DNA of 64,000 nucleotides from Candidatus Cloacimonadota bacterium. GTDB lineage: Bacteria > Cloacimonadota > Cloacimonadia > Cloacimonadales > GCA-2742885. The stretch is from NCBI GenBank assembly GCA_002742885.1, contig PDOO01000029.1:9043-73042 (forward strand), in the 5' to 3' direction. The notes under the pieces are model-generated. The model made no database searches and was not told the DNA's origin. It was given only the letters and a program-made list of their open reading frames with translations. Shown piece after piece: positions 9,069-49,820 of the stretch (positions within the stretch are counted from its first letter, which is position 1; each line of letters opens with the position of its first letter). Made by a program: the position numbers and the translations under genes.

Positions 9069-9101
9069 ATCTCCGGCAATGATTATATTTTATAAAATGT
9101 T

Positions 9102-9500
9102 ACAGAGAAGACGGTAAGCCGAATTTTGTCCTTTACCTAAGAAGTAAAGTAATGTCTATTTATCTCAGTCGTACATTGCTGTTTCTCAAAAGGAACCTTT
9201 TAAGGACGACTTAAGCTGCCCACCCGAAAGTCTCAGGATCGGGCAGATCCTCTTTGCCGAAGCAAACGACTTTCCTATTTGGCATTGCACCGGATAAGGT
9301 TTACCTTGCATTTCGACTCACATCGAAACCGGTAGTCTCTTACACTGCCTTTTCACCCTTACCCGAAATAATTCGGGCGGTATAATTTCTGCGGCACTTT
9401 CTCCGCATCGCTGCGACTTTCCGTTAGAAAGTATCCTGCCCTGCGGTGTTCGGACTTTCCTCTTCGCCTCAAGACGAAGCAGACATTTCGTCTTCTCTGT
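9102..9500 (-). ncRNA. rnpB: RNase P RNA, bacterial type A
   Basis: This is a GC-enriched, ORF-free 460-nt gap. The minus strand reads 'GAGGCGAAGAGGAAAGUCCGAACACC' (conserved GAGGAAAGUCCG), 'GGGUAAGGGUGAAAAGGCAGUGUAAGAGACUACC', 'CCAAAUAGGAAA' and a 3' 'ACAAAAUUCGGCUUACCG'. The 5' ACAGAGAAGACG pairs with the 3' CGUCUUCUCUGU to form P1. Confidence 0.88.
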
Positions 9501-15030: not shown

Positions 15031-15498
15031 GTTTTTCTCCTGTTTATATTTTAATCTTATTATATAACTGAACTCTCTAAAAAGAGATACATTATCCGAT
15101 CTTTAAATTTTCGGACGTTTTTTATGTCAATAAATAAATAACTTTAAGGCTTATCGCATAAGTTCTGACAATATATTTTCTTTATTTTAAATGCTTTCTA
15201 AACTTTTTTATGCCTTGCTGAAGAGCTTTGACCTGAAAAATTTGCTCGGCAGTTAAATAAATCGAATCTTGCCTTAAATTAATTCACCGGGTAAAAAAGA
15301 ACAAATTTTTAAATTGAGCAGTTTTATTTTCCGTTAAATTGACAGATATGTTTTTTTAAGTTAAAAAAATTATTTCATTTAATTTTCTGATTAAGCTTAA
15401 CAATAATATGTTTTGTCTGTTTTTTTATTTTTCGGGTTAAATATTTTTTGTTAAAATTTACTTATTGATTAGGTTAGTATAATATTTTTGGAGGTATC

Positions 15499-17772
15499 AT
15501 GATAAAAAAATTAATTTTGCTTGCTTCTTTTTTTATATTGGGGGCAGGTTTAAATGCTCAAAGCGTATTTTTATGGCTAAATGAAAATCCGTCTTTTCAT
15601 TTTGATGATCCCGAAACCGGCGAATACGCTTCATCGGAAGACAGGATTACGGGATTTCTGGATGAAATGAACATAAATTACGACTCTGATTACGAGTTGC
15701 CTGAAGACTTATTGCAATATGATGCCGTACTCGTCTTTCTGGGCGGGTTCTGCGTTTCCTGAGATTGGTGGCCGCCCGGCGCCGTGAGCGTCGAACAACA
15801 AAACGTTTTGGTCAATTATCTTAATGCGGGAAAAGCTCTTTATGTTGAAGGAACCAATATCGGTATTGATTTTGCCGGCACGGAGTTTCTTGCCATGCTG
15901 GGCATAGCTTCCGGCATTCAAGGAGAAGATGAAGAAATAACAGGCGGAATTCGCGGTATTGACGATACTTTTACCGCCGGAAAGAATTACGATTATCGGG
16001 ATGAAAATCCCGGGCAAACGCCTTCTTATTGCATAGGAAGAATGAATCGTTTAACAGCAGGAACAGGAACGGCAATATTGAACTCCGTAAACGGAGATTA
16101 CGTAAGAGCTGTTGCCAATAAAGGCGAAAATTACAGGGCGATAGGTTCAACCGTTATAACCGGAGCGCTCTTTGACGGAGAAAGCGACAACACCAAAAAG
16201 AATTTGTTTCAATTGTATTTATCTTTTCTGTTTGGGCAAACGGAACCGGAATGTTATTCTTCCGAAGATGAAATATCTTTTGGAAATATTGATCCGGGAG
16301 AAACGCCGGAAATTAATTTTTTCCTTCAAAATCAGGGAGAAAATGATTTGAATATTACTGACGTAATTCTTGATTCCGATGATTTTGTTTTAACCGGAGC
16401 CGAATCTGCTTCTCTTGTTTTCGGAGAATCAATTCCTTATTCTGTTCAGCTTAATCCGAACGAAACAGGAATTTTCAGCGTTAATATAGAGATTCATTCC
16501 AATGATCCGGAAGAGCCCGTTAAAATAATTCCCGTAAGCGCGACTGTTCAATATCCGCCTCAACTGAGTATTCCTGCAGAAGAGGTTGCGGATATTAAAT
16601 TCGGGGAAACTAATTATCTGAATTTTAACTTGGAAAATACCGGCGAAGCGGATCTCAGTTATTGGACGAGAATAATCGGATTGTCTGTTAATGCTTCGGG
16701 TGATCCCGATAATTACGGATACAATTGGTGGAAAGCGTCTGATTATCCTGGAGAGCTTTCCGAATGGAACGATATTTCGGAAATAGGCGATTTACATCCG
16801 ATGAACGGTTCAAATACTTTTTATAATCTTGAATTGCCTTTTTTATTCCCGTTTTACGGTAAGCTTAAAACAAACGTAAAAGTTTCGTCCAACGGTTATC
16901 TTACTTTCGGACGAGACGGGATTGATTATTCCAATGACGAAATTCCCAATTCAATAAAACCCAATGATATGATTGCGCCGTTTTGGGACGACTTGAAATC
17001 AAATTCCGGAGATTTATACTCTTATTTTGATGAGGACGGCAAGAAGATTATTATACAATATACGAATTGGGTATTTTATAATGAAACGGGAAATCTCAAT
17101 TTTCAGGTGATATTGCATCAAAACGGAGATATTGAATTTTTATACGGAAATATGGACGGAGAGCTTAACGAAGCGACCGTAGGTATTGAAAATGCCGATG
17201 CTGACGACGGTTTACAGATTGCTTATAATCAAGATTTTGTCGAGAGCAACACTTCCGTTTTTATTTCGCCGAACGCATCATTTATAAAATTGGATGATCC
17301 TCAGGCAATTGTTGAAGCGGGAGTTCCTTTTACCGTAAATTATGCGGTTGACGGAAATCAATTGGCTTTGAACCAGTCTTACAATGCTGAAATTGAATTT
17401 TACTCAAATGATCCTGATGATTCTCTTAAAACTTTGCCTTTGACGTTAAATGTTATTCAGGTTGCCAACGATAATGATATTGCTGAATATAAATCGGAAG
17501 CAAATATTTATCCTAATCCTTTTATTGCAACCGGAAGCAGAGCAAATATTACAATATCTTTTTCTCTTCCTGAAGACTCGCCTGTCGAGATCGGAGTTTA
17601 TAATATTAAAGGTCAGAAAGTTTACGAGCAAAAGATTCCTGAAATAAAATCCGGAAAACATATTCTCGAATTAAAATCCGAATTTTCCGAACGTAGTGTC
17701 AGCGGAATTTACTTCGTTAATCTGAAAACTCAAACAAACCGGTTAAATAAAAAAATATTGCTTGTGAAGTAA
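15499..17772 (+). CDS. candidate selenoprotein: secreted multidomain T9SS cargo with in-frame TGA (residue 88) in a C-V-S-U motif
   Basis: Track ORFs 15499..15762 and 15784..17772 are in the same frame, separated only by TGA 15760-15762. The first has SD GGAGG plus a signal peptide but no sorting domain. The second has a T9SS C-terminal domain but no signal peptide, no SD and only a GTG start. See the finding for details. Confidence 0.6.
15777..15793 (+). promoter_or_regulatory. SECIS-like hairpin downstream of TGA 15760
   Basis: CGGCGC-CGUGA-GCGUCG forms a 6-bp stem (one G:U) with a 5-nt G-containing loop, starting 14 nt after the TGA. It lies in a locally very GC-rich patch of an AT-rich gene. 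Confidence 0.4.
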
Positions 17773-17799
17773 TTTCGGTTACGCGCAAAATAACTTATT

Positions 17800-17835
17800 T
17801 CCCTCGCTTTTTTATGATTGCGAGAGATTTTTTTT
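17800..17835 (+). terminator. rho-independent terminator
   Basis: UCCCUCGC-12 nt-GCGAGAGA (8 bp, one mismatch) followed by U8, 28 nt after the stop codon. Confidence 0.65.
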
Positions 17836-18371
17836 GTTTATCTCTATGTTTTACTTCATGCTTCATATTAAAAATGTATGATTGCATAAATAATTATTGT
17901 TAATGTGTTTATTTTGATATTTAAGGATATTTTTCATTCCGGGGTTTCGTAAATTACAGCTTAAGTAAAACGGCTGAACCGGGCGACGGGAAAAAGTGCG
18001 GATTATCTGTCTGAGATAAGCATAACTTATAAGATTAAAAAATCTTGCAAAATGAAACACGGATATTTTTATTAATTAATTATCCCTATTATTCGGAACC
18101 GAGTGTTTATTTATTATTTTTTTTGTTTTTATTTTAAAAATTAACTATTATAAGAGAACAATTATTTGACAATAAAACGAATATTTGTTTTTGATCCGAA
18201 AAAATAAAAAAATTATTGTTTTTTATACGCAGAATAATATTTTAAATGTTGTAATCTTTTTTATTAAAATGAAATAAGTGATTGCCATCCGAGATAAATT
18301 TATTTTCTTTAAGATAAACCGGATTATATTTTAATGCAAAGTAAAGCATAAAAATAAGGGAGATTATCGGA

Positions 18372-26882: not shown

Positions 26883-28538
26883 TTATTTCATAAGCAACAT
26901 TTTGCCGACGACGTTTTTATTGCCGTTGACGAGCCGGTAATAATAAATACCGCTTGCTGCCGCATTATTGTTTTTGTCTTTTCCGTTCCATCTTATTTCG
27001 TAACGCCCTTTCTCCATATTTTGATCAACCAAGGTACAAACTTTTTGACCTTTTACATTGAATATTGAAAGATTGACTTTTCCCGATGAGGAAACATTAT
27101 AAACAATTGATGTTTCCGGGTTTAAAGGATTGGGATAATTGCTTAATTCATTCGGAGTGATTGCTTCAAATGAGTCTTCTTCGTTATCGGTTGTCAAACC
27201 CGTAAATGTTATGTAATCGATTTTTAAGGCGAATCCGTTATTCCCTGCCGGCATATCATGTTGTATCGCCACTCTTATATCTTCTCCGGAATAAGATGAA
27301 AGCGAGTAAGTATATTTTTCGTAATTGAAACCGGTTGTGTCTCTTCCGATTATTTGATAAGCCGCCAAGTTATTCGGGTCTTCTTGGGCAGAAACCGATA
27401 CATTAAAACATTCTTGATTGTAATATTGATCCTGACCCGAAGCGTAAAAACTTATTGATGCTTCTTCTTCAACATGAACTCTCGGAGAGATCAGCCAATT
27501 GTTTACGGCAAAAGCAATTTGATTTACGTTGTCGTAAGAATATGAAACGGCGCAACGATTTCCGTCATAAGCGTCCATTCCGGCAGTGGATAAAGTCCAG
27601 TTAAAATCGTTTTGAGCAACATTTATTCTGAGCCAATTATAAAATCCCAATTCAAAACTCATGCCGTCTCTCGGAATAATGCTGATAGGATCCGTGTAAT
27701 CGGAAACCTCGTCTCCGTAAATTTGAGCAACTTTATAAGAGTAAGTTGTTTCAATCGTTACGTTTGAATCCATATAATAAAGTCCGGCATAATTATCTGC
27801 AATGATTTCCTCGTTGCGTTGAATGACAAATTCTTCCGATTCTCTGTAATCGTAATTTATTTCCGGAATTTCATTTCGCATTTGATTTTCATTGCTTGTC
27901 GCATTTTCGGAATCAATGTAAGGCCTTGCCGCAAGCAGACGTTCTCCCGGCGTTTCAACAACCAAGGTGATGAGAAAATCTCCTTTATCGACAGGATCGT
28001 TTATTGAATAGTCGTTGTTTAAAATATAAGAACTTCCGTCATAATCTTGATCAATTGCGATAACCGGTTTAGCATCGGTGTTTATTCCTGATTCAGGTCT
28101 TATGAAAACACCGAGCACTCCTGAAGCCGGAGTGGCTTCCGCCGGCACTTCAATTTGGTATTCCCAATTATTTGAGGTTGTTGTTTTGTAATTTTCCAGT
28201 ATGTAAACAGGTTGATGAGATGCCCAGTCAAGAAAAACGATGTCGCATGAATCTCCGGGATTGCTCCAGGAAGTGAAAAATTCCACAGAATAAACATTTG
28301 CTGACGGCATGGATGTCAAATCAAAGAGAGAACCGTAAAGTTTTTGTTTATTTTGATAGTATCCGTCATCCGGTATTCCGTCATGCAATTTAATTTCTTG
28401 AGTTCCTTCCGGTATGGCAGGTCCCCAATTTAAGTGGCAGGAACCTTGATCGGAAACAACCGAAAAGTGGCGGGGAGAGTTTAATGCCGATAAGATGCAA
28501 ACAGTCGACATTAAAAATACAGATAAAAATTTTTTCAT
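26883..28538 (-). CDS. secreted T9SS cargo protein (choice-of-anchor-J-like domain)
   Basis: It has a signal peptide and a C-terminal sorting domain 'YPNPLNPETSIVYNV...LSIFNVKGQKV...SGIYYYRL...KMLLMK'. The mid-region 'NNWLISPRV...ISFYASGQD' resembles choice-of-anchor J / cleaved-adhesin folds. Confidence 0.7.
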   Translation of the reverse strand: MKKFLSVFLMSTVCILSALNSPRHFSVVSDQGSCHLNWGPAIPEGTQEIKLHDGIPDDGYYQNKQKLYGSLFDLTSMPSANVYSVEFFTSWSNPGDSCDIVFLDWASHQPVYILENYKTTTSNNWEYQIEVPAEATPASGVLGVFIRPESGINTDAKPVIAIDQDYDGSSYILNNDYSINDPVDKGDFLITLVVETPGERLLAARPYIDSENATSNENQMRNEIPEINYDYRESEEFVIQRNEEIIADNYAGLYYMDSNVTIETTYSYKVAQIYGDEVSDYTDPISIIPRDGMSFELGFYNWLRINVAQNDFNWTLSTAGMDAYDGNRCAVSYSYDNVNQIAFAVNNWLISPRVHVEEEASISFYASGQDQYYNQECFNVSVSAQEDPNNLAAYQIIGRDTTGFNYEKYTYSLSSYSGEDIRVAIQHDMPAGNNGFALKIDYITFTGLTTDNEEDSFEAITPNELSNYPNPLNPETSIVYNVSSSGKVNLSIFNVKGQKVCTLVDQNMEKGRYEIRWNGKDKNNNAAASGIYYYRLVNGNKNVVGKMLLMK

Positions 28539-37695: not shown

Positions 37696-39024
37696 ATGAA
37701 ACTGGAAATAGGAAATTTCCAAGTCAAAGATGCAGTCTTCGGCGATAAGACTTCATTTGCAGACGGAATTTTAACCGTAAATAAACAGGAAGCTCTGGAT
37801 TACGTAAGGGAAGATTCTCATATTACCTTTGCGGACATCGAAATTGCTCGTCCCGGAGAATCGATTCGTATCGTCCCCATAAAAGAAGCTGTCGAACCCA
37901 GAGTTAAATTGGACGGAACGCCTCTTTTTCCCGGGGTAACCGGTGATTTGGCAAAATGCGGAAACGGAAAGTCTCATGCTCTTAAAGGTTGCAGCGTTAT
38001 GGCTGTCGGAAAACATTGGGGAAGCTTCGGAGACGGCTTGCTTGATATGAGCGGAGAAGGAGCAAAATATTCTTATTTCTCCCAATTAATTAATATTTGT
38101 CTGGTGGTTGATACCGACGAAGAATTTGAAAGATACGAGCAACAAAAGAAAAACAGAGCCATTCGCTGGGCTGCTCATAAGTTGGCTGAATTCATCGCCG
38201 AAAAATCAATCAAAGATTTGGAACCGGAATCGGTTGAAACTTTTGAATTGGAGCCGATTACCAAAAGAGGCGAGAAATTCAATGATCTTCCAAGCGTTGT
38301 TTTGGTTATGCAACCTCAATCTCAGATGGAAGAAGCCGGATACAATGATCTTGTTTACGGTTGGGATTTGAATAATTTCGTTCCTACTTTCATGCATCCG
38401 AACGAAGTTCTTGACGGAGCTCTTATTTCCGGAAGTTTCATGCCTTGCTCTTCAAAATGGTCAACTTACGACTTCCAGAATTTCCCTACAATTAAAGAAT
38501 TATACAGCCGTCACGGCAAAGAAATAAATTTCCTCGGCGTTATCATGAGCAATCTTAACGTTGCTCTCGACCAAAAACAGCGTTCGGCTCAATTTGTGGC
38601 TCAAATCGCCAAAACGTTAGGAGCCGACGGCGCCATCGTAACCGAAGAAGGTTACGGAAATCCTGATACAGACTACATTGCCTGCATTGCAGCTTTGGAA
38701 GATGTCGGAGTAAAAGTTGTCGGGATCAGCAATGAGTGTACCGGACGCGACGGAGCTTCACAGCCATTGGTTGCCTTGGATACAAAAGCCGATGCTTTGG
38801 TCTCCACCGGCAATGTTTCGCATCTTATCAAGCTTCCGCCCATGGATAAAGTTATCGGCGAATTGGAAGCTTTGGCTCGCGACGGTCTTTCAGGCGGTTG
38901 GGCTGATGATGAAATCTTGGGTTCTTCCGTAAAAGAAGACGGATCCGTTATTATGGAAAATAACGCAATGTTCTGCGGAGATCAGATTGCCGGCTGGTCA
39001 ACCAAAACCATGAAAGAATTTTAG
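37696..39024 (+). CDS. glycine/sarcosine/betaine reductase component B, GrdE/GrdG/GrdI-type subunit
   Basis: 442 aa. 'MKLEIGNFQVKD...', 'FMHPNEVLDGALISG' and its position directly upstream of the Sec-containing GrdB-type gene support the call. There is a strong SD (AAGGAGG). Confidence 0.85.
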   Translation: MKLEIGNFQVKDAVFGDKTSFADGILTVNKQEALDYVREDSHITFADIEIARPGESIRIVPIKEAVEPRVKLDGTPLFPGVTGDLAKCGNGKSHALKGCSVMAVGKHWGSFGDGLLDMSGEGAKYSYFSQLINICLVVDTDEEFERYEQQKKNRAIRWAAHKLAEFIAEKSIKDLEPESVETFELEPITKRGEKFNDLPSVVLVMQPQSQMEEAGYNDLVYGWDLNNFVPTFMHPNEVLDGALISGSFMPCSSKWSTYDFQNFPTIKELYSRHGKEINFLGVIMSNLNVALDQKQRSAQFVAQIAKTLGADGAIVTEEGYGNPDTDYIACIAALEDVGVKVVGISNECTGRDGASQPLVALDTKADALVSTGNVSHLIKLPPMDKVIGELEALARDGLSGGWADDEILGSSVKEDGSVIMENNAMFCGDQIAGWSTKTMKEF

Positions 39025-39035
39025 GAAGGTTTGAA

Positions 39036-40385
39036 ATGAAAAAAGCAATATTATACATAAATCAGTTTTTTGCGGGAATAGGCGGAGAAGATAAAGCCGA
39101 TCATGCTCCGGAAATTCGCGAAGGATTAGTCGGTCCCGCCCTTGCTCTCAATGATGTTCTTGATGCTGAAATTACTCATACCGTAGTTTGCGGCGATAAC
39201 TTTATGGGTTCAAAAACGGAAGAAGCAATAGATACGATTATCGGATTTCTCGACGGTAAGGACTTTGACATTTTCTTTGCAGGTCCCGCTTTCAGAGCAG
39301 GACGTTACGGAGTTGCCTGCGGGCATATTTGCAAAGCTGTTAAGGAAAAATTCAATGTTCCGGTTATTACATCCATGAACGAAGAAAATCCGGGTGTTGA
39401 AATGTTCAAAGCTGAAATGCCTGTTTTTAAAGGCGGTAAAAGCGCTGCCAAGATGCGCGCAGACGTCAAAAAAATGGCGAAATACGCCAATAAGATTTTG
39501 AATGGCGAAGAAACTCTCGGAGCTGATGCAGAAGGTTATTTCCCTCGCGGCATCAGACAGCAGGTTTGGTTGAAAGGAGAAGAAGCTGTTTCTGCCGCAA
39601 AACGCGGCGTTGACATGCTTATCAAAAAAATGAGCGGTCTTCCTTATCAAACCGAATTAGTTATTCCGAAAGTTGATATGGTTCCGATTGCTGCTCCGGT
39701 TAAGGATCTTTCCAAAGCCAGAATCGCAATTGTTACCAGCGGCGGTATTGTCCCGGTTGATAATCCTGACAAAATTCAGTCTGCTTCTGCTACTCGCTGG
39801 GGAAAATACGATATTTCCATGTTAGACAGATTGCCGGCAGCCGGAGACGATTCTCCCGAATCAAATCCGCATAAAGCTTACAAAACAATTCATGCCGGTT
39901 ATGATCCGGCGGCGGCAGATACCGATCCCAACAGAGTTGTTCCTTTGGATGCCCTTCGCGCTTATCAAAAAGAAGGAAAAATCGGCTCGGTTGCCAAATA
40001 TTTCTATTCAACCGTAGGAACCGGAACTACTCAGGCTGAAGCTGCCAGAATGGGAAATGAGATAGTTGAACATCTCCGCGAAGATAATACGGATGCTGTT
40101 ATAATGACATCTACGTGAGGCACTTGCACACGTTGCGGCGCAACGATGCTTAAAGAAATTGAAAGAGCCGGTTTCCCGATTGTCCAAATGGCAAATCTTA
40201 TTCCTGTTTCCGTTTCAGTCGGAGCCAATAAAATTGTTCCGACCATTTCCATTCCTTATCCGTTGGGAGACCCGAATACTCCTGCCGAAGATCAATGGAA
40301 ATTGCGTTATCACAGAGTCGGAGTCGCTCTTGATGCTTTGACTGCCGACATAAAAGAACAAACAATATTTAAAGTTAAAATCTAA
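39036..40385 (+). CDS. glycine/sarcosine/betaine reductase component B selenoprotein (GrdB/F/H type), Sec at codon 361
   Basis: Track ORFs 39036..40118 and 40146..40385 are in frame across TGA 40116-40118. The junction reads 'IMTST-U-GTCTRCGATM', the GrdB-family UxxCxxC selenocysteine site. Confidence 0.9.
40131..40145 (+). promoter_or_regulatory. SECIS-like hairpin after the grdB-type TGA
   Basis: CGUUGC-GGC-GCAACG has a 6-bp stem and starts 12 nt after the UGA. Confidence 0.5.
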
Positions 40386-40443
40386 ATTTTAATCAGGGAC
40401 TGTTTTTTTATAGAACAGTCCCGCAACATTTTACGGAAAAGTT

Positions 40444-41928
40444 ATGAAGAAACAAAATCAAACGGTATTCTACGTATCATTTATCGTAACCCTTGCGATA
40501 TCCCTTTGGGGAATGCTTGCTCCCGAGACTTTCGGAAAGCAGGCTCAGACGTTATTCAATTATTTGACGACAAATTTCGGTTGGCTTTATTTAATTACAA
40601 TGTTTTCCTTTATAGGTTTTTCTCTTTATTTGGCGGGCAGTAAATACGGTTCCGTTAAACTTGGAAAGGATGACTCTGAACCGGAGTACAGTTATATCTC
40701 ATGGTTTGCCATGCTTTTCAGCGCAGGTATGGGCATCGGATTGGTTTTTTGGGGAATTGCCGAACCTCTAAACCATTACATGTCTCAATGGGGAGCCGAA
40801 CCCGGAACTGCTCAGGCGGCGGATTTTGCCATAAAAAAATCTTTCTTTCACTGGGGACTTCATCCATGGGCAGGTTACAGCGTTGTAGCTTTGGCTTTGG
40901 CTTATATGCAATTCAGAAAGAATAAACCCGGGCTTATTTCGAGTATTTTTATTCCTGTTTTGGGAGATGATGCGCAACATACGCTTGTCGGAAAAATAAT
41001 AGATATTCTGGCTATTTTTGCTACTGTTGCCGGAGTTGCCACCTCTTTGGGCATGGGAACTCTCCAAATTGAAAGCGGTTTAAATTATTTGTTTGGGGTT
41101 CCGATAAATACCGTTACGGAGATTATCATTATAATAGCGGTAACATTCTTGTTTATGCTTTCGGCGATAACCGGTTTGGATAAAGGAATTAAGATACTGT
41201 CTAATTGCAATTTAAGCCTTGCCGGTCTTTTGATGATTTTAGGTTTGATTATCGGACCGACCGTAATGATCATAAATGCTTTTACCAATGGTATCGGCAT
41301 GTATTTTCAAGATATTATTCAAGACAGTTTTAATGTTGAAGCATTCGGCAACAATAGTTTTGTTAACGGCTGGACAATTTTTTATTGGGCATGGTGGATT
41401 GCCTGGGCTCCTTTTGTGGGCGTATTTATTGCCAGAATTTCCCGGGGGAGAACTATTCGCGAATTTGTAACAGGAGTTCTTCTTGTTCCCGCATTGGGTT
41501 CTTTTCTCTGGTTTGCCATTTTCGGAACTATGGGGATTGCTCAAGGTTCGGAAGTTGCCTCTGAAGCAATTAAATCGACTCCTACCGCTCTTTTTGTGGT
41601 AATGGGGCATTATCCCATGGGAGCCGTTATAAGTTTTGTTGCAGTTATTTTGCTTTGTACTTTCTTTGTAACTTCTGCCGATTCAGCCACTTTTGTTTTG
41701 GGAATGATGTCGCAAAACGGAAATCTTAATCCGGATACCAAACGTAAAGTCGTTTGGGGAATTATCCAGTCATTGTTGGCTTTGGCGCTGATGTTGACCG
41801 GCGGTTTAAAAGCATTGCAGACGGGATCCATCGTTGCTGCTTTTCCGTTCCTTTTTGTAATGATTTTTGCGATGTACTCTTTCTTTAAGGCATTGAAAAG
41901 CGACGATAAGTTTAAGAAAAACAAGTAA
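40444..41928 (+). CDS. BCCT-family (betaine/carnitine/choline) transporter
   Basis: 494 aa with about 12 TM segments. 'ISWFAMLFSAGMGIGLVFWGIAEP' and 'WTIFYWAWWIAWAPFVGVFIARISRGRTIREF' form the BCCT Trp-rich signature. Confidence 0.9.
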   Translation: MKKQNQTVFYVSFIVTLAISLWGMLAPETFGKQAQTLFNYLTTNFGWLYLITMFSFIGFSLYLAGSKYGSVKLGKDDSEPEYSYISWFAMLFSAGMGIGLVFWGIAEPLNHYMSQWGAEPGTAQAADFAIKKSFFHWGLHPWAGYSVVALALAYMQFRKNKPGLISSIFIPVLGDDAQHTLVGKIIDILAIFATVAGVATSLGMGTLQIESGLNYLFGVPINTVTEIIIIIAVTFLFMLSAITGLDKGIKILSNCNLSLAGLLMILGLIIGPTVMIINAFTNGIGMYFQDIIQDSFNVEAFGNNSFVNGWTIFYWAWWIAWAPFVGVFIARISRGRTIREFVTGVLLVPALGSFLWFAIFGTMGIAQGSEVASEAIKSTPTALFVVMGHYPMGAVISFVAVILLCTFFVTSADSATFVLGMMSQNGNLNPDTKRKVVWGIIQSLLALALMLTGGLKALQTGSIVAAFPFLFVMIFAMYSFFKALKSDDKFKKNK

Positions 41929-42182
41929 AAACAAGCGATAAAGGGGGCAACGTTTTTTTTCTTTTCAGAGAATGCAATAATTTTTTTTATCTGTAAAATG
42001 GAATCTGACGATAAATTATTTATTGCATTCCTCTGAAATTCAGACAGGCTTTTACGGTTAATTTCGATTAAAATAAAATAAAGTTTGAAAATTTATTTTT
42101 TTTATGGACAAAGAATAAGTCTGAAAATCTTTGAAATCCGTTTACTTAAAGAATAAAATAAAAATAAATACAATGTGAGGAT

Positions 42183-43385
42183 ATGATGAATGAAATCTAT
42201 GATCTTATAATAATCGGCGGCGGACCGGGAGGATTATCTGCCGGTGTTTATGCGGCTCGCTCTAAAATGAAGACTTTATGTCTGGAAGAGAAAAGAAGAG
42301 TCGGCGGTCAATGCGCAACTACTACGGAAATGGAAAATTATCCGGGTATTCTTGAGTCAACGGGACCGGGTTTGATGGATAATTTCCGAGCTCACTGCGA
42401 AAAATTCGGAGTTGAGTTCAGAAGAGGAAAAGTCGATTCTTTGGAGATTGCGGAAGACGGATTCATTAAAACGGTCAATACTCAAAAAGGCGAAAAAATT
42501 TACGGTAAATCCATTATCATTTCAACAGGAGCCGAGGCTAGAGTTTTAGGTATTCCGGGCGAAAGAGAATTACGAGGACGCGGTGTTTCTTATTGCGCAA
42601 CTTGCGATGCCGATTTTTTTGAAGACCTTGATATAATTGTTGTGGGAAGCGGAAATACGGCAGTTGAAGAATCTGTGTTTCTGACTAAATTCGTGAATAA
42701 AATAACAATGGTTATCCTTCATGAAGAAGGAAAAATGGATGCCGATAAAACTGCTCAAGAACAATGTCTGGCGAATGAAAAAATCGATTATATCTGGAAT
42801 TCCACGGTTGAAGAAATAGTCGGAGATGAGCTGGTTACCGGAGTCAGGGTTAAAAATATTAAAACCGGAGAAATCAGTGAAGTCGAATGCGACGGAGTTT
42901 TTATGTTTGTGGGAACGGTTCCAAAAACTGATTTTGTAAAAGATTTAATTGAACTCACTCCTCATAAATATATAAAAACAACCGAAAAAATGGAAACAAA
43001 TATTCCCGGTATTTTTGCCGCAGGAGATGTTCGGGATAAATATCTTCGTCAAGTCGTAACAGCAGCCGGAGACGGCGCAATTGCCGCAGTAGCCGCAGAA
43101 AAATACGTTGAAAACGAAGAAATGTGGCAAAAAAATGTTTTGAAAGCCGAGAAACCGGTTGTCGTTGCTTTTTGGAGTCCTGTAAATAAAGAAAGTATGG
43201 CTGTTTTGACGAAATTGGAAGTCGCAGAAAGAGATGAATACGATCTTGTAAAAATAGATGCCTACAAAGATTCCATGTTGGCAGATCGATACGGAGTAAA
43301 AGAACTTCCCGCAGTTCTCAGATTTGAATCCGGTAAATTGATTAAGAAATACGATCTTGAAAAAGAACTGGACGAAATAATTTGA
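42183..43385 (+). CDS. trxB: thioredoxin-disulfide reductase fused to a Cys-less thioredoxin-fold C-terminal domain
   Basis: 'DLIIIGGGPGGLSAG', redox 'CATCDADFF', 'VVGSGNTAVEES' and 'GIFAAGDV' identify TrxB. The C-terminal roughly 90 aa, 'PVVVAFWSPVNKESMAVL...ELPAVLRFESGKL', is Trx-like but has no CxxC. Confidence 0.88.
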   Translation: MMNEIYDLIIIGGGPGGLSAGVYAARSKMKTLCLEEKRRVGGQCATTTEMENYPGILESTGPGLMDNFRAHCEKFGVEFRRGKVDSLEIAEDGFIKTVNTQKGEKIYGKSIIISTGAEARVLGIPGERELRGRGVSYCATCDADFFEDLDIIVVGSGNTAVEESVFLTKFVNKITMVILHEEGKMDADKTAQEQCLANEKIDYIWNSTVEEIVGDELVTGVRVKNIKTGEISEVECDGVFMFVGTVPKTDFVKDLIELTPHKYIKTTEKMETNIPGIFAAGDVRDKYLRQVVTAAGDGAIAAVAAEKYVENEEMWQKNVLKAEKPVVVAFWSPVNKESMAVLTKLEVAERDEYDLVKIDAYKDSMLADRYGVKELPAVLRFESGKLIKKYDLEKELDEII

Positions 43386-43436
43386 TAAATATTTAACGCA
43401 TAAAACAATTAATACTTTATAACAAAGGAGTCATAA

Positions 43437-43889
43437 ATGTTAAAAGGAAAAAAAGTCATCGCTATAGGCGACAGAGACGGAATTCCCGGTCCGGCTATTG
43501 AAGAATGCGCAAAATCAGCCGGCGCGGAAGTAATATTTGCTTCAACCGAATGCTTTGTCTGAACGGCTGCCGGAGCTATGGATCTGGAGATCCAAAAAAG
43601 AGTTAAAGAATTGGCTGAAAAAGAAGGAAAAGAAAACCTGGTAGTATTGCTCGGAGGAGCCGAAGCCGAGGCTTCCGGATTGGCTGCCGAAACAGTTCTT
43701 ACCGGCGATCCGACTTTTGCGGGACCTCTTTCCGGAGTTGCATTGGGACTTGACGTTTATCACATCACCGAACAGGAAATTAAAGATGAAGTAAATGCCG
43801 AAGTTTATGAAGAACAATGCGGAATGATGGAAATGGTTCTTGATGTTGATGAAATTAAAAGCGAAATGGATGAAATACGTAACGCTTAG
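43437..43889 (+). CDS. grdA: glycine/sarcosine/betaine reductase complex selenoprotein A, Sec at codon 42
   Basis: I hand-translated from ATG 43437: '[42 protein letters not shown](TGA 43560)-TAAGAMDLE...', in frame with track ORF 43578..43889. 'CFVUTAAGAMD' is the GrdA active-site signature. Confidence 0.95.
43580..43593 (+). promoter_or_regulatory. SECIS-like hairpin after grdA TGA
   Basis: GGAUC-UGGA-GAUCC starts 17 nt after the UGA. A weaker GCU-GCCGG-AGC stem precedes it. Confidence 0.45.
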
Positions 43890-43912
43890 TCAATGCTTAA
43901 AAAATATTTGTA

Positions 43913-43944
43913 AGGGCATGTCTTTATTGATATGCCCTCTTTTT
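43913..43944 (+). terminator. terminator/attenuator-like hairpin between grdA and grdC
   Basis: AGGGCAU-12 nt-AUGCCCU followed by CUUUUU, 24 nt after the grdA stop. Confidence 0.6.
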
Positions 43945-44000
43945 AAAAATAAATCATCTTTGTCGATTATGCAGAGTTCGACAAAATTAAAGGAGAAATA

Positions 44001-45539
44001 ATGACTTATCCCGTTATAAAGGCTTCAAGTTATGTTTTGGTGCATACCCCGGATGTATTAAAACAAAACGGAGCTACTCAGGTCAGTACAAGATTGCAAG
44101 ATCCGAATCATGAGTATCTTTTGAATATAGATAAAAGTTTAAGAAATTTTGACGAAGTTGTCAGATATGCGCCTAATCAGGTTTATATCGGCAATGTCAG
44201 TACGGAAGATCTTCGAGAAATTGCAAAACCTTGGTTCAAAGAAGAAAATCTTTCGGAAAACAAGCGTTTCGGTAAATTCGGCGAAATTATGCCGCAAGAC
44301 GAATTTTATCTTTTGGTTCAACACGCAGATTCTTTCGGTTTGGTTTTGTTGACTCCGGAATTTATTGAAAAAACTTCTCCCAAAATAGAAGTTCATCCCG
44401 TATTGAGCAAAATGAACATTAAAAATACAGGAACAGATTTAGCCGCAATTAAAGAATTGGTTGATGCTCACGCCGCCGAAGGTCTGTACCAAGACGGAGA
44501 ACTTATCGGTTGCGTCAAAGAAGCTCATAATACCGATGAAAATCTCAGCGCTCACTTTATGCTTGAAAATCTTATGGTAAAAGCTTCCGGAGCTTTGACT
44601 TTAATGAACATGGCGGAAAGAAATAATCTTGATTTGGCTTCGATAGATTATATTATCGAGTGTTCGGAAGAAGCCTGCGGCGATGTAAATCAGCGCGGCG
44701 GAGGCAACTTTGCCAAAGCTGTCGGAGAAGTTTGCGGTTGCGTAAATGCCACAGGTTCGGATGTTCGTTCTTTTTGCGCTGCTCCGGCTCATGCCGTTGT
44801 TTACGCATCTTCTCTGGTAAAATCAGGTATTTATAAAAATGTTGTCGTGGTTGCCGGCGGAGCTGTTGCCAAACTCGGAATGAACGGTAAAGACCACGTC
44901 AAAAAAGAAATGCCGATTTTGGAAGATACTTTGGGCGGATTTGCCGTTTGCGTAAGCGAAAACGACGGCGTTAATCCTATTATCAGAACAGACATTATCG
45001 GTCGCCATAAAATAGGAACAGGTTCTTCTCCGCAAGCCGTAATGACTTCTTTGATCGCAGAACCGCTTGAAAGAAACAATCTGAAAATTGTCGATATAGA
45101 CAAATATTCTCCCGAAATGCAAAATCCGGAAATTACGGTTCCCGCAGGCGCCGGCGACGTTCCTCTTTCCAATTTCAAAATGATAGGAGCCTTAGCCGTT
45201 AAACGTAAAGAAATGGACAGAAAAGATATTCAAAACTTCGTAAATGAACACGGTGTAATCGGTTTTGCCGTAACTCAAGGTCATATTCCGTCCGGAGTTC
45301 CTTATATCGGACCGGCTCGAGAATTAATGTTGGAAAACAAACTTAATAATGCCATGATCGTCGGTAAAGGTTCTTTGTTCTTGGGAAGAATGACCAATCT
45401 TTTTGACGGCGTTTCGTTTGTAATCGAAAAAAATCCTGGAAAAGTCGAAGAAACGGAAGCTTTTGATGAAGCAAAAGTTAAAAGTCTGATTGCCGAATCA
45501 ATGCGTAAAATGGCAGCAACCCTTTTTGCTGAAGAATAG
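44001..45539 (+). CDS. grdC: glycine reductase complex component C, beta subunit
   Basis: 512 aa with a thiolase-like fold. Its position after grdA and before grdD and its conserved N-terminus 'YPVIKASSYVLVHTPD' support the call. Confidence 0.88.
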   Translation: MTYPVIKASSYVLVHTPDVLKQNGATQVSTRLQDPNHEYLLNIDKSLRNFDEVVRYAPNQVYIGNVSTEDLREIAKPWFKEENLSENKRFGKFGEIMPQDEFYLLVQHADSFGLVLLTPEFIEKTSPKIEVHPVLSKMNIKNTGTDLAAIKELVDAHAAEGLYQDGELIGCVKEAHNTDENLSAHFMLENLMVKASGALTLMNMAERNNLDLASIDYIIECSEEACGDVNQRGGGNFAKAVGEVCGCVNATGSDVRSFCAAPAHAVVYASSLVKSGIYKNVVVVAGGAVAKLGMNGKDHVKKEMPILEDTLGGFAVCVSENDGVNPIIRTDIIGRHKIGTGSSPQAVMTSLIAEPLERNNLKIVDIDKYSPEMQNPEITVPAGAGDVPLSNFKMIGALAVKRKEMDRKDIQNFVNEHGVIGFAVTQGHIPSGVPYIGPARELMLENKLNNAMIVGKGSLFLGRMTNLFDGVSFVIEKNPGKVEETEAFDEAKVKSLIAESMRKMAATLFAEE

Positions 45540-45547
45540 GAATTGTT

Positions 45548-46699
45548 ATGTCCCGAAATTTAAATAAAAAAATCGCTGAAATATTCACGAATATTGCGGA
45601 TGCCATAGAGTCAGGAAGTTTTGCCGAGAGAAAAAGAATCGGTCTCACGATTTTGGGCAGCGAACATCCGATTTCAGAATTGGTTCGAGGCGCCGAACTT
45701 GCCTCGGAAAAATATTCCGATCTTGAAATTGTTCTGATAGGAGAAGGCGCCGAAACAGATTTGGAAATGTTGCCGGCAAAAGATCTGGATGAATGCCATA
45801 AGGTAATGGAAAAAGCATTGGCTGAAGGAGTTATTCACGGTTGCGTAACTTTACATTATAATTTTCCGCTCGGCGTATCTACCGTGGGAAGATTAATTAC
45901 TCCCGGACGCGGAAAAGAAATGATTCTCGCCACCACGACCGGAACTTCCGATACGGAAAGAGTTGCCGGAATGGTTAAAAATGCAATTTACGGTGTTGCC
46001 GTTGCCAAATCTTTGGGCAATAAAAACCCTAAAATCGGTATTCTTAACATAGACGGAGCAAACCCGACGGGAAGAAAATTAAAAGAATTGAAAGAAAACG
46101 GTTATGAAATAGATTTTGCCGAATCCGCAAGAAGAGACGGCGGAATCACCATGCGCGGAAACGACCTCTTGGTCGGAACACCCGATGTGATGGTTTGCGA
46201 TACTTTAACCGGAAATCTTTTGATGAAAATGTTTTCTTCGTTTACGACGGGAGGAAGTTATGAAGCTTCCGGTTACGGTTACGGTCCCGGAATAGGCGAA
46301 AATTTCGATTCCGTCATTTCGATTATCTCTCGAGCATCCGGAGCTCCCGTTATTTGCGAAGCTTTGCGTTACAATGCCGATGCGGTAAGCGGTAAGGTTT
46401 TCGATATTCTCAAAAAAGAATTTGATTCTGCCCGAAAAGCCGGTTTGGACGAAATTCTTAAACCTGCTGTAAAAGAAGCGGTAACCAAAGAAGTTGTTTG
46501 TCCGCCCAAAAAAGTTGTGAGCGAACAAATTCCCGGAATCGATATTCTGGAGATCGAAGAAGCCAAAGAAGAACTTTGGGAAGAAAAAATTTATGCGGAA
46601 ACTGGTATGGGTTGCACAGGTCCCATTATTATTGTGGCAAAAGAAGATTTGGAAAGTGCCAAAAAAGTCTTGGCTGCCGCAAAATATATCTCTGCATAA
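45548..46699 (+). CDS. grdD: glycine reductase complex component C, alpha subunit
   Basis: 383 aa. It has PlsX/FabH-like blocks 'GILNIDGAN', 'VMVCDTLTGNLLMK' and a C-terminal 'GMGCTGPII'. Confidence 0.88.
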   Translation: MSRNLNKKIAEIFTNIADAIESGSFAERKRIGLTILGSEHPISELVRGAELASEKYSDLEIVLIGEGAETDLEMLPAKDLDECHKVMEKALAEGVIHGCVTLHYNFPLGVSTVGRLITPGRGKEMILATTTGTSDTERVAGMVKNAIYGVAVAKSLGNKNPKIGILNIDGANPTGRKLKELKENGYEIDFAESARRDGGITMRGNDLLVGTPDVMVCDTLTGNLLMKMFSSFTTGGSYEASGYGYGPGIGENFDSVISIISRASGAPVICEALRYNADAVSGKVFDILKKEFDSARKAGLDEILKPAVKEAVTKEVVCPPKKVVSEQIPGIDILEIEEAKEELWEEKIYAETGMGCTGPIIIVAKEDLESAKKVLAAAKYISA

Positions 46700-47083: not shown

Positions 47084-47597
47084 TTTCCGAAATTAAAACA
47101 GGTTAAAATTCCCGTCCTCTGAAGATCTGCAGGCAAATTTATAATAAACTCCCTTCATTGCTTCGGCAACACCTGCAGGGACTGCCTCCTGTCTGCCTTT
47201 TATCTCCCTCGCCCTTCGGGAGAGGGTTAGGGGTGAGGGTTTTAAATCATCGCAAGACCGGCATATTTGACGGAACAGGGAAAATAAAAACGCAAAAATT
47301 GCAAAAAAACGTATCTTTTATATTCCCCGATTTCTCAAAGACGGTTTCTCCGGAATTTTTTTTAATAAAACCACATATTGTAAATAATATATAAAAATAT
47401 GTAATATGTTTTAAAACAAGAGATTACCCCCCCCAAATTTCCACGAACACAGAGCAATATTTTAAATTTATAAAAAAATACATGTTATTAATATTTTAAT
47501 TGACGATATTTTCAATTTGAATTTTTACAATTCTTGAAATCAGGCAATAAAAATACCAAAAAATTTATTGCCCGGAAAACAAAAAAAGGAGATGCAA

Positions 47598-49820
47598 ATG
47601 AAAAAATCTTTAATTATCATGATGTTGGTTTATTTTACTTTCGCAGGTGTTTTATTCGCCGGCGAAGGGATTTCTTTTAATAACGGCAAACTGACAAGTA
47701 AAAGTGCGACAAGTACAAAAAAAATCAGTAAAACACCCGAGTTCTCACAGGACAGAGGTTCAAAAAAAATTCTTTTTGAACAAACCGCTATAGAACCTGA
47801 TGAGGTTGATTGGTGGTCAATAGGCGTATCCGACATGGGATACCAAGAAATCGGTGACGGGCTCATACATGCGGACAATTTTTCCGTAGCCGAAGGAATT
47901 ATTACAAATGTAAAAGTTATCGGTCTTAATCTTTTTAACGGCGATGACTGGTCAGAAGCAGACGAAGATCCCATGAATTTTATCGTTAACTTTTACGAAG
48001 ATAACAACGGTACTGCAGGAGAACTTGTTTCTCACCAAGAGATTAACGGTATCTCTCGTGTTGCCAACGGAAATGATTATTTAGGTTTTATTGCTTACGA
48101 ATGGGACATTCCTCTGGAAACTCCAGTAAACATGCAATCCGGCTGGATTGCCGTTGCAGGTAACAATAACGACACTGAAGGTTGGTTCATGTGGGCAAAC
48201 TCTGCAGAAGGCGACAACGTTGAATATATAAACTATAACGACAGTGACGGCTGGCAGCTGTCAGAAGACGAAGGCAGACCTACGGACAGAGCTTTCACCC
48301 TTACGGGGGACTTTGTAAATACCGATGAATTGATTATCTCCGAAGTAAAAAGCAACGGGGATGCTTCTTATATCGAGTTTTACAATAATACGGATAAAGA
48401 CCTCGATTTGGAAAGCGTAAAAGTAAAATATTTCAATAACGGTTCCTCCGAAGCTTCGGAAACAAACTTATCCGGCAACCTTGAAACCGGAGAATATTAC
48501 GTAATTACTCGTAATCAAAATGCTTTTACAATCGCTTATCCCGGCAAAACAGTGAATGCGATATTCTCCGCAATGCTTTTGGACGGCGGTAAAGATGCTC
48601 TTGCTTTGGTTTGCAATAATCAAGTTATTGACCGTTTTAATGCCGAAGGAGCGGAAGCCGAGACATGGGATAACGGAGATCATTTTGTAAGAACCGATAT
48701 TTTGTCTTCGGGAGAATCTTTGGCAAACGATTGGGCAAAAACAAACGAGAACTCCACGCCCGGAGAAACAAATCAAGCCGACAGCGGAAGCGAATCAAAC
48801 TGGGAGCCGGATACAAATGTTGATTTCGGTTCAAACGGAACAGATCAGCCTGCCGTTGTCTTAAACATGAATAACGGCAATCTGCCCGGAGCAACGACGG
48901 TTGAGATAAAAAGAGGCAAGGACGTTCCCAATGCGGGCGAAGAAACCTTTGTAAAACGTTATGCGAAAATTAATTCCGAAAATCAGCCGAGCGACGCTTC
49001 CTTGAGAATTTACTACAAAGATTCCGAATTAAACGGATTGGACGAAAATAAATTGATCATTGTCGGTTATTGGGACGGATCATGGCATGAGTTCAATAAC
49101 GTAAACCGCAATGCAGATGAAAATTGGGTTGAAACAACCGGCATAAATCATTTCTCGAATTGGGCTTTAAGAGAGGGCAAAGACGGAAATCTTCCGGTTC
49201 AGCTTTCTTCTTTCGCGGCAATACAAACCTCGGACAACTGCGCCGAAATAGAGTGGGTAACGCAAACCGAAAACGATATGAGAGGATATTACGTTTACAG
49301 AGGATATTCGGAAAACATTACGGAAAGCAATAAACTGAATCCGGAAATTATCCCGGCTCACAATTCTCCGACAGCGGTAAAATATTCGTATAAAGACGAA
49401 ACGGTAAACCCGGGCGAAACATATTGGTTCTGGCTTGAATCCGCCGGAAATGACGGAGTCGTTAAAACTTTCGGTCCTCTGATTTTTACCTTGGAAAACC
49501 AAGAAGACGTTAATCCGGCGGATATCCCGGATGTTTCTTACTTAAATAATTCTTACCCCAATCCTTTCAATATTTCCAAAGAAAGAAACGGCGAAGTAAG
49601 CATCAGATTCGGCGTAAAAGAAAATGACGAAGCCGACCTTACCGTTTACAATTTGAAAGGACAGCTTGTAAAAGAATTTAAAAGTTACAAGCCGGGAAAT
49701 CATACCGTAAACTGGAACTTAAAAACCGAAAACGGAAAAAATGCAGAATCAGGCATTTATTTCTATCGCCTGAAAACCAAAACAACAGATATAACGCATA
49801 AGATGCTGATCATAAAATAG
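47598..49820 (+). CDS. secreted T9SS cargo protein with lamin-tail (LTD)-like domain
   Basis: I chose the start at MKKSLIIMMLVYF (AGGAG 6 nt upstream) over the track TTG at 47568. There is a signal peptide, an LTD-like 'LIISEVKSNGDASYIEFYNNTDKDLDL', and a C-terminal 'YPNPFN...LTVYNLKGQLV...SGIYFYRL...KMLIIK'. Confidence 0.75.
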   Translation: MKKSLIIMMLVYFTFAGVLFAGEGISFNNGKLTSKSATSTKKISKTPEFSQDRGSKKILFEQTAIEPDEVDWWSIGVSDMGYQEIGDGLIHADNFSVAEGIITNVKVIGLNLFNGDDWSEADEDPMNFIVNFYEDNNGTAGELVSHQEINGISRVANGNDYLGFIAYEWDIPLETPVNMQSGWIAVAGNNNDTEGWFMWANSAEGDNVEYINYNDSDGWQLSEDEGRPTDRAFTLTGDFVNTDELIISEVKSNGDASYIEFYNNTDKDLDLESVKVKYFNNGSSEASETNLSGNLETGEYYVITRNQNAFTIAYPGKTVNAIFSAMLLDGGKDALALVCNNQVIDRFNAEGAEAETWDNGDHFVRTDILSSGESLANDWAKTNENSTPGETNQADSGSESNWEPDTNVDFGSNGTDQPAVVLNMNNGNLPGATTVEIKRGKDVPNAGEETFVKRYAKINSENQPSDASLRIYYKDSELNGLDENKLIIVGYWDGSWHEFNNVNRNADENWVETTGINHFSNWALREGKDGNLPVQLSSFAAIQTSDNCAEIEWVTQTENDMRGYYVYRGYSENITESNKLNPEIIPAHNSPTAVKYSYKDETVNPGETYWFWLESAGNDGVVKTFGPLIFTLENQEDVNPADIPDVSYLNNSYPNPFNISKERNGEVSIRFGVKENDEADLTVYNLKGQLVKEFKSYKPGNHTVNWNLKTENGKNAESGIYFYRLKTKTTDITHKMLIIK

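Follow-up and report, generated by a model that had tools for sequence, protein, structure and literature searches.

An in-frame TGA conserved in a family of predicted type IX-secreted proteins from Cloacimonadota very probably encodes selenocysteine

Among the selenoproteins of bacteria, exported or outer-membrane representatives are on record, for example FCYXU-type TonB-dependent receptors and DsbA/DsbG-like proteins (PMC13188914, Table 1), and Cloacimonadota are among the phyla that may have a type IX secretion system (T9SS) (PMC11285876). Here we describe a locus in a 64-kb stretch of DNA (contig PDOO01000029.1, 64,000 nucleotides, called the window throughout) from a metagenome-assembled genome (MAG) of Candidatus Cloacimonadota, in which a single TGA separates two open reading frames (ORFs) that lie in one frame. 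In an earlier note on this window the locus had been proposed as a candidate new secreted selenoprotein. Our analysis supports this proposal, with every computational check suggested there pointing the same way, except that the gene is not a one-off but belongs to a large family, and it is highly probable that the UGA at 15760 encodes selenocysteine (Sec) within one secreted protein. The accompanying statement that exported or surface selenoproteins are rare in bacteria can be kept as far as the unusual location is concerned, but the examples listed above show that such a location is not unprecedented.

Four nt downstream of a GGAGG Shine-Dalgarno sequence an ATG opens an ORF of 87 codons, which is closed by the TGA in question. 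Direct reading confirmed that the frame of this ORF (15499..15762) runs on open from 15763 to a TAA at 17770-17772 and that the TGA is its sole interruption. The joined product has 757 residues (...YDAVLVFLGGF-C85-V-S-U88-DWWPPGAVSVEQQ...), with GGF-C-V-S-TGA-DWWPPG surrounding the site. As proposed before, read-through creates a C-x-x-U motif behind a β-strand (FLGGF-C85-V-S-U88), and in the model of a homologue this motif is located in a loop directly after a strand. The sorting signals are distributed over both parts, since the T9SS domain (PF18962, TIGR04183) is limited to the downstream part and the signal-peptide-like N-terminus, a hydrophobic stretch followed by A-Q or S-Q that we recognized by eye in the window protein and its relatives, is limited to the upstream part. 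In GenBank the two parts are deposited as separate "hypothetical protein" entries, PID28254.1 (CSB55_05500, 87 aa) and PID28255.1 (CSB55_05505, 662 aa).

The first line of evidence is the conservation of the TGA. An in-frame TGA three codons past an invariant Cys was found at 32 sites from independent MAG and metagenome loci, mostly of Cloacimonadota, and the TGA-bearing relatives reach down to approximately 30–40% protein identity. The only close homologue in an index of 5.8 billion proteins (P0001, 72% identity) is located on a Joint Genome Institute (JGI) contig (L001) and is split alike into an 87-residue ORF, the TGA and the remainder in frame (…FLGGFCIS-TGA-GWSPPGTVSAEEQ). Using HMMER and the part of the domain that follows the TGA we collected 111 representatives, giving 112 family members including P0001. 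From these, 77 begin 0–45 residues past the site, many of them with MTPPG…, MQPPG… or [MV]SSxxQQ…, and a search with the upstream fragment resulted in 46 proteins, all between 65 and 117 aa long and all but one (45 of 46) ending in C-x-x-stop. The family shows a separation into two subtypes: subtype 1 is marked by an insertion of six residues (C-x-x-[C/U]-G-x-T-P-P-G), and subtype 2, without this insertion and without Cys (G-[IV]-Y-x-x-N-H), occurs as an accessory domain in the interior of large C25 peptidases of the gingipain-like kind with T9SS tails. For contig scans an alignment of the window/L001 pair (A1) matched nothing and an alignment of 40 sequences (A2) was too diverse, while a tighter one (A3) worked. 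Scanning one genome per species revealed the TGA in 16 of 16 subtype-1 (CxxU) loci and scanning metagenome contigs gave nine subtype-1 loci with TGA, so that the two unbiased scans add up to 25 subtype-1 loci with TGA, none with Cys and one with neither. The TGA is also present in the DNA of the relatives L002 and L003, and three more sites were found in L042 and L043.

At the position of the TGA a Cys is found in five subtype-1 proteins (P0007 CTGC, P0017 CLSC, P0022 CIGC, P0054 CVGC and P0076 CLRC). These Cys homologues show the motif W-C-x-x-C and are single unbroken ORFs, and for three of them TGC was confirmed in the DNA. Two database entries (P0029 and P0068) have a W at this site, which in the case of P0029 goes back to a TGA in the DNA (L002:506-508) that was translated with genetic code 4. 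Homologues of the CxxU/CxxC subfamily carry Cys or TGA at residue 88 and no unrelated residue. One subtype-1 member (L032, Ga0208905_1004998; P0073) has the P-P-G insertion but no Cys and no Sec (…LYSFVEQNDPPG…); it may have degenerated or taken on a new function. When the window is compared with L001, the differences at codon positions 1/2/3 amount to 11/7/34 for residues 22–87 and to 34/26/92 for residues 89–250, and this third-position bias shows, at the level of sequence comparison, purifying selection on either side of the TGA. A decaying locus is not what the relatives point to, as their complete read-through products extend intact from a signal-peptide-like N-terminus (…A/S-Q…) to the T9SS tail (…KKMILLK) with no further lesion.

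Several additional observations were made on the members of the family. On the JGI contig of the closest homologue (L001:1554-2735, Ga0499485_2782) the family frame is lost after approximately residue 497 (…NDLNPDSLINRCNILFSLPHV…stop) and ORFs on the opposite strand follow; the contig is probably a chimera, or else the gene is broken at this point. Two tandem paralogues (L042:8001-10337 and L042:10561-12840), each with TGA and hairpin, are located on a 1.4-Mb contig amid T9SS cargo genes, and several MAGs (JAIORE01, JAUXIJ01, JAUVLE01 and CBDUTJ01) contain two or more paralogues. In the window itself no paralogue of the family was detected by tblastn. Some members derive from MAGs labelled Armatimonadota, Bacteroidales or candidate division Zixibacteria (L008, L009, L015; P0117, P0121), which could be due to a wider distribution of the family, to horizontal transfer or to binning errors.

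The second line of evidence is a hairpin (CGGCGC-CGUGA-GCGUCG) that begins 14 nt past the TGA and resembles a bacterial selenocysteine insertion sequence (bSECIS). We aligned 27 distinct segments of 63 nt, which was possible without gaps, and imposed the window hairpin on them by pairing columns 30–35 with columns 41–46. The TGY codon for Cys, the TGA and the next G are invariant in all 27 segments. Pairing is possible in 81.5% of the cells compared to 68.1% in shuffles, a value reached by none of 500 shuffles. The covariation score of 0.491 (0.265 in shuffles) was likewise not reached in any of 500, and it drops to 0.19 or less if the 3′ arm is slid by 1–3 columns. Pair 33-43 occurs as UA (12), AU (8), CG (2), UG (2) and GC (1), and pair 34-42 as GC (12), AU (9) and GU (1). 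The residues encoded by the arms (G-T-V-S-S, G-A-V-S-V, G-I-V-N-S, G-V-V-G-T or P-D-P-L-D-P) vary jointly with the pairing being kept, and RNAalifold recovered the same hairpin core unprompted. Even in a clade (L019, L028) with the hairpin shifted by one nt and a Leu codon instead of Val, the G-U of the loop is retained. Across relatives the hairpin is hence kept, as a stem of 5–7 bp, with compensatory changes. The bSECIS model describes a loop of 3–9 nt, a stem of 4–16 bp, a distance of 16–37 nt between UGA and loop and a minimum free energy (MFE) of −7.5 kcal/mol or lower, with a G in the first two loop positions that is usually followed by G or U (PMC13188914). The window element, with its 5-nt loop CGUGA, 6-bp stem, UGA-to-loop distance of 20 nt and MFE of −13.0 kcal/mol, falls within all of these limits. 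The locus L032, which has neither Cys nor Sec and served as control, shows no hairpin (MFE −2.6).

The window also holds further evidence for the use of selenium. The Sec genes of the grdB type and grdA as well as selU, named in the earlier note, were all found: the GrdH/GrdB-type gene (…MTST-TGA-GTCTRC, TGA at 40116) is followed by a match to the Rfam model SECIS_4 at 40119-40156, grdA (…ECFV-TGA-TAAGAMD, TGA at 43560) encodes a C-x-x-U motif, and selU/mnmH is located at 61855-62904. From grdA, grdH and selU we infer that the organism decodes Sec. Among all in-frame TGAs of the window only those at 15760, 40116 and 43560 have a credible coding context on both sides. Among the 41 long ORFs of the window 10 end in TGA; one of these TGAs is the Sec codon of grdH and the others are taken as true stops. 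Code 11 therefore applies, and a reassignment as in code 4 or 25 was ruled out by this stop-codon usage. The two grd genes are part of a betaine-type reductase cluster (37696-46699, plus strand) encoding a GrdG-like component B alpha, GrdH, a BCCT betaine transporter, thioredoxin reductase, GrdA, GrdC and GrdD. At gathering thresholds the only Rfam matches in the window were SECIS_4 at grdH and a bacterial RNase P RNA class A (RF00010, 263.6 bits, 9099-9499 on the minus strand).

For residues 1–250 we obtained no sequence match in Pfam, NCBIfam or PDB, and the fold was addressed by models of homologues. The AlphaFold model of P0029 (344 residues comprising the N-terminal domain and the T9SS tail, alignment of 68 sequences) reached a predicted local distance difference test (pLDDT) value of 91.5 and the model of the domain alone from P0049 one of 86.9. 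P0029 is predicted to form one α/β domain with the strands 21–25, 59–62 and 74–78 before the site and others from 111 onward after it; the C-x-x-U loop directly follows strand 74–78 and the next helix begins about ten residues on. These models show computationally that one domain spans the TGA. A Foldseek search against PDB (probability 1.0, template modelling (TM) scores of about 0.45–0.65) gave class I glutamine-amidotransferase-like structures only, namely the ThuA-like proteins 4jqs (E = 4e-7), 4e5v and 1t0b, the GIFT domain of IFT52, an OST subunit, the GH42 trimerisation domain and the true amidotransferases PabA, HisH and GMP synthase. According to the models the N-terminal domain is a three-layer α/β/α domain of the class I glutamine-amidotransferase (GATase1)-like fold, in which the C-x-x-U loop occupies the position of the nucleophile elbow of GATase1 enzymes. 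The likeness to redox CxxC/CxxU sites pointed out before does not extend to the fold: a thioredoxin fold was rejected, as the fold search returned only GATase1-like structures and no Pfam match to the thioredoxin family was obtained, and the resemblance to thioredoxin is confined to the aromatic-C-x-x-C/U motif. The domain is also not recognisable as an amidotransferase by its sequence, which lacks the Cys-His-Glu triad. There is no conserved amidotransferase-type His-Glu pair, the His of the D-H present in many relatives being a Phe in the window protein, and no Pfam or NCBIfam GATase model matched even at E up to 10.

Several results weigh against the reading of the TGA as the Sec codon of one secreted redox-type protein. 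The genes selA, selB, selC and selD are absent from the 64-kb window, in which ARAGORN also found no tRNA genes. The segment 15755-15815 does not fold with a better energy than its dinucleotide shuffles (z = +1.17), and with the E limit relaxed to 10 the stretch 15650-15900 matched no Rfam SECIS model but only, spuriously, a snoRNA. The GC-rich hairpin described in the earlier note is accordingly present at the given distance, but it is energetically unexceptional as a single sequence and without a Rfam counterpart; we regard it as more than chance because of the comparative evidence, that is its recurrence at 32 sites and its covariation, and not because of single-sequence energy. If the bSECIS criteria are applied to the global MFE fold, only 17 of 26 distinct loci pass automatically, and several of those not passing (L008, L009, L012 and L016) keep the local hairpin with the stem GGUGU/GCACC while the global fold picks another one. 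The hairpin overlaps the coding sequence of the conserved P-P-G-x-V motif, so that its conservation is partly at the protein level. It is furthermore not exclusive to the TGA forms, as it is still present in three Cys forms (L039, L040 and L041). Two of these, L040:1501-4347 (hairpin CGGUGC-GGUCG-GCACCG) and L041:233-2020, correspond to P0022 and P0017. The sequences suggest that the hairpin of the Cys forms is a fossil SECIS left by a recent Sec-to-Cys conversion, an event called rare in bacteria in a 2026 review (PMC13188914). The fold assignment is based on predicted models of homologues and not of the window protein itself, with moderate TM-scores, and no gene for an electron donor or redox partner is evident in the neighbourhoods of L042, L043 and the window.

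The alternative that survives best concerns the function only. The protein would then be a selenoprotein, but its C-x-x-U loop would bind a metal or metalloid (Hg, As, Cu, Zn), or Cys/Sec at the amidotransferase elbow would serve as a hydrolytic nucleophile as in a peptidase or amidase. In line with this, about 70% of the inferred Sec-ligand interactions involve metals and a selenoprotein of the GATase1 fold with Sec at G-x-U-x-G has already been listed (both PMC13188914), the loop is located at the nucleophile position of GATase1, and the homologous Cys-less domain is found in C25 peptidases. On the other hand, the missing conserved His-Glu pair of amidotransferases and the Phe in place of the D-H His in the window protein speak against this alternative, the closest structural neighbours (ThuA-like, GIFT, GH42 trimerisation domain) are non-catalytic, and C-x-x-U/C-x-x-C is typical of redox sites (PMC13188914). 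We consider this alternative possible but rather doubtful.

It is also conceivable, although very improbable, that the UGA is read through as Trp, Cys or Gly by near-cognate or suppressor decoding or by a partial reassignment. Sec itself is deduced as the residue, at least one pipeline has translated the codon as Trp using code 4, and the site has no Rfam SECIS match, all of which would fit. This explanation is, however, difficult to reconcile with TGA being an ordinary stop in about a quarter of the long ORFs of the window, with the co-varying hairpin that has a G-U loop at bSECIS distance, and with the two classic selenoprotein genes and selU of the organism. Moreover, the homologues without TGA, which have the C-x-x-C motif, always align a Cys, the chemical analogue of Sec.

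An even smaller chance is left for two separate genes, with the TGA as true stop of an 87-residue secreted peptide and a downstream protein starting from the GTG at 15784. This corresponds to the annotation by GenBank and other gene callers, and the GTG is kept in many relatives. Yet the 21 nt from the TGA to the GTG keep coding for G-x-T-P-P-G in frame while they vary by synonymous changes, the Cys forms are single uninterrupted ORFs, the model shows one domain with strands from both sides of the TGA, and no Shine-Dalgarno sequence precedes the GTG in L001. The downstream piece would also be left without a signal peptide despite a T9SS domain that needs export by the general secretory pathway. 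Finally, a sequencing or assembly error or a decaying pseudogene, for which one could cite the origin of the window from a MAG and the loss of the family frame toward the 3′ part of the closest orthologous contig L001, is practically negligible, since the identical lesion is found at 32 sites in data from many different samples and assemblers, the complete relatives show no other frame disruption and selection is purifying before as well as after the TGA. Because the TGA is conserved at many sites and the products of the relatives are intact, the error, pseudogene and two-gene readings are all untenable.

Returning to Sec as the residue encoded by UGA 15760, the sequence comparisons show computationally a single gene with sorting signals, a conserved TGA with Cys counterparts and a co-varying hairpin, and from these we infer Sec insertion, export and chemistry as follows. 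The ribosome would meet UGA 15760, and the hairpin 14 nt further on, with its G-U-containing apical loop, would recruit SelB with Sec-tRNA(Sec), leading to insertion of Sec as residue 88 as in established bacterial Sec decoding. The 757-residue precursor would then cross the inner membrane through the Sec translocon by means of its N-terminal signal peptide, and the T9SS would carry it over the outer membrane, where it is probably anchored at the surface by the type A C-terminal domain. Sec would lie in the C-x-x-U-G-x-T-P-P-G loop inserted right after a β-strand of the ThuA/GIFT-like domain. By analogy, Cys85 and Sec88 may form a reversible selenenylsulfide acting as a surface redox or thiophilic-ligand site, a speculative idea for which we see the chances as evenly balanced. 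In anoxic habitats its possible targets might include disulfides, polysulfide and soft metal(loid)s.

The family is large, the Sec form is dominant in it, several paralogues occur per genome and it is related to the accessory domain of C25 peptidases. No model for the N-terminal domain exists in Pfam or NCBIfam 20.0, as judged from the window protein and two core members, no comparable family is included in Table 1 of the 2026 review (PMC13188914), the deep-Sep paper or the BSepDB paper, and a literature search linking Sec with T9SS, or Cloacimonas/Cloacimonadota with selenoproteins, found nothing relevant. The protein family is apparently undescribed; its recoding would follow the usual bacterial mechanism. 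As this mechanism is standard and new selenoprotein families are regularly reported, our findings extend known biology and do not add a new principle. What is unusual is the combination of a T9SS cargo, a glutamine-amidotransferase-like scaffold, a C-x-x-U loop, Sec forms far in excess of Cys forms and a fossil hairpin in the latter. For annotation this means that dozens of "hypothetical protein" pairs in Cloacimonadota and in Zixibacteria-, Armatimonadota- and Bacteroidales-labelled MAGs would be single selenoprotein genes, and one protein database even contains copies with Trp at the Sec site. Tentatively, and with slightly more doubt than confidence, we propose this as the first type IX-secreted family of surface selenoproteins, with Sec as the ancestral and by far the prevailing state (approximately 95% Sec vs 5% Cys) and with an extracellular selenoenzyme or ligand site. 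If true, Cloacimonadota and related lineages of the FCB (Fibrobacteres–Chlorobi–Bacteroidetes) group would have several paralogues per genome, acting on environmental targets, e.g. protein disulfides ahead of gingipain-like proteases, polysulfide or soft metal(loid)s, and the amount of selenium available in anaerobic digesters and sediments would be linked to the biology of the cell surface in a major phylum that is still uncultured. The family also offers a concrete target for metaproteomics in anaerobic digesters, where Cloacimonadota are abundant, and a route to asking for the role of selenium outside the cytoplasm.

Table 1: Positions of the features at the locus in the window, with the basis of each assignment.
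Feature	Position	Strand	Basis
Shine-Dalgarno sequence GGAGG	15490..15494	+	Sequence; no comparable site before the GTG of the orthologue L001 (= 15784)
Single gene for a 757-residue selenoprotein precursor (proposed)	15499..17772	+	Frame, conservation, selection, structure model, intact relatives
Signal peptide MIKKLILLASFFILGAGLNA, followed by Q...	15499..15558	+	Judged from the sequence by eye; cleavage site inferred
N-terminal domain, class I glutamine-amidotransferase-like (ThuA/GIFT-like) fold, enclosing the TGA	15562..16248	+	AlphaFold models of homologues, Foldseek
Cys85 codon TGC, start of C-x-x-U	15751..15753	+	TGY in 27/27 aligned loci; 45/46 orphan upstream ORFs end in C-x-x
In-frame TGA, proposed Sec codon, residue 88	15760..15762	+	Kept at 32 sites; Cys in five homologues
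SECIS-like hairpin, stem 15777-15782/15788-15793, loop CGUGA 15783-15787	15777..15793	+	Covariation; bSECIS criteria
Immunoglobulin (Ig)-like domain (choice-of-anchor D / HYDIN-VesB-like / DUF1573)	16252..16527, residues 252-343	+	PF22544 3.5e-9; NF012200 4.7e-14
NIDO-like segment	16873..17079, residues 459-527	+	PF06119 3.6e-6, 27.5 bits (cutoff 25)
T9SS type A C-terminal sorting domain	17506..17760, residues 670-754	+	PF18962 30.3 bits (cutoff 27); TIGR04183 42 bits (cutoff 23)

Just past the stop codon, at approximately 17803-17835 on the plus strand, a weak hairpin with a loop of 12 nt (CTCGC…GCGAG) and a T-run behind it were recognized by eye and may form a terminator. A scan of 15200-17950 for consensus promoters and terminators was uninformative and did not call this element. 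In L042, L043 and the window the genes of the family neighbour other T9SS cargo genes. Further surface proteins encoded in the window are one of 750 residues that combines a T9SS tail with an ExeM-like nuclease segment (47568-49820, plus strand) and a choice-of-anchor J protein (26883-28538, minus strand).

Compared to known systems, the locus resembles grdA and grdH/grdB from the same window in its in-frame UGA, its small G-containing hairpin within about 12–20 nt and its Cys homologues, and with grdA it also has the C-x-x-U motif in common. The folds are unrelated, however, the Grd proteins are cytoplasmic whereas our protein is predicted to be exported, and SECIS_4 matches grdH but not the site of TGA 15760. 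The excess of Sec over Cys forms in the family is the reverse of the usual pattern (PMC13188914). The FCYXU-type receptor is likewise a predicted envelope selenoprotein, and its F-C-Y-x-U is close to the F-C-V-S-U of the window protein, but it is a TonB-dependent β-barrel from Desulfobacterota and not a T9SS cargo with a GATase1-like domain, and the joined window protein gave no match to the NCBIfam model of this receptor. The amidotransferase-type selenoprotein with G-x-U-x-G has the class I glutamine-amidotransferase fold in common with our protein, and its Sec is positioned at the nucleophile elbow or close to it. In that protein, a true amidotransferase of the cytoplasm, the catalytic Cys is exchanged for Sec, whereas in the family described here Sec would be part of an inserted C-x-x-U-G-x-T-P-P-G loop of a secreted and probably non-amidotransferase domain. 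The best structural matches of the domain-only model, namely the ThuA-like proteins (4jqs, 4e5v, 1t0b), the N-terminal domain of IFT52 (5fms/5fmr) and the OST subunit (6ezn), were found with E values from 4e-7 to 1e-5 and TM-scores of about 0.5–0.6, these being comparisons of a predicted with solved structures. Their identity is only 11–17%, and these ThuA-like/GIFT proteins are no selenoproteins and do not have the C-x-x-U/C loop. Related by sequence are T9SS-tailed gingipain-like C25 peptidases (e.g. P0034, P0088 and P0095), which contain a homologous domain (HMMER E values from 1e-8 to 1e-3) and the same sorting domain. Their accessory domain is located in the middle of proteases of 1200–1900 residues and has neither the six-residue insertion nor Cys or Sec (G-[IV]-Y-x-x-N-H), whereas in the family described here the domain is N-terminal and carries the loop with the proposed Sec.

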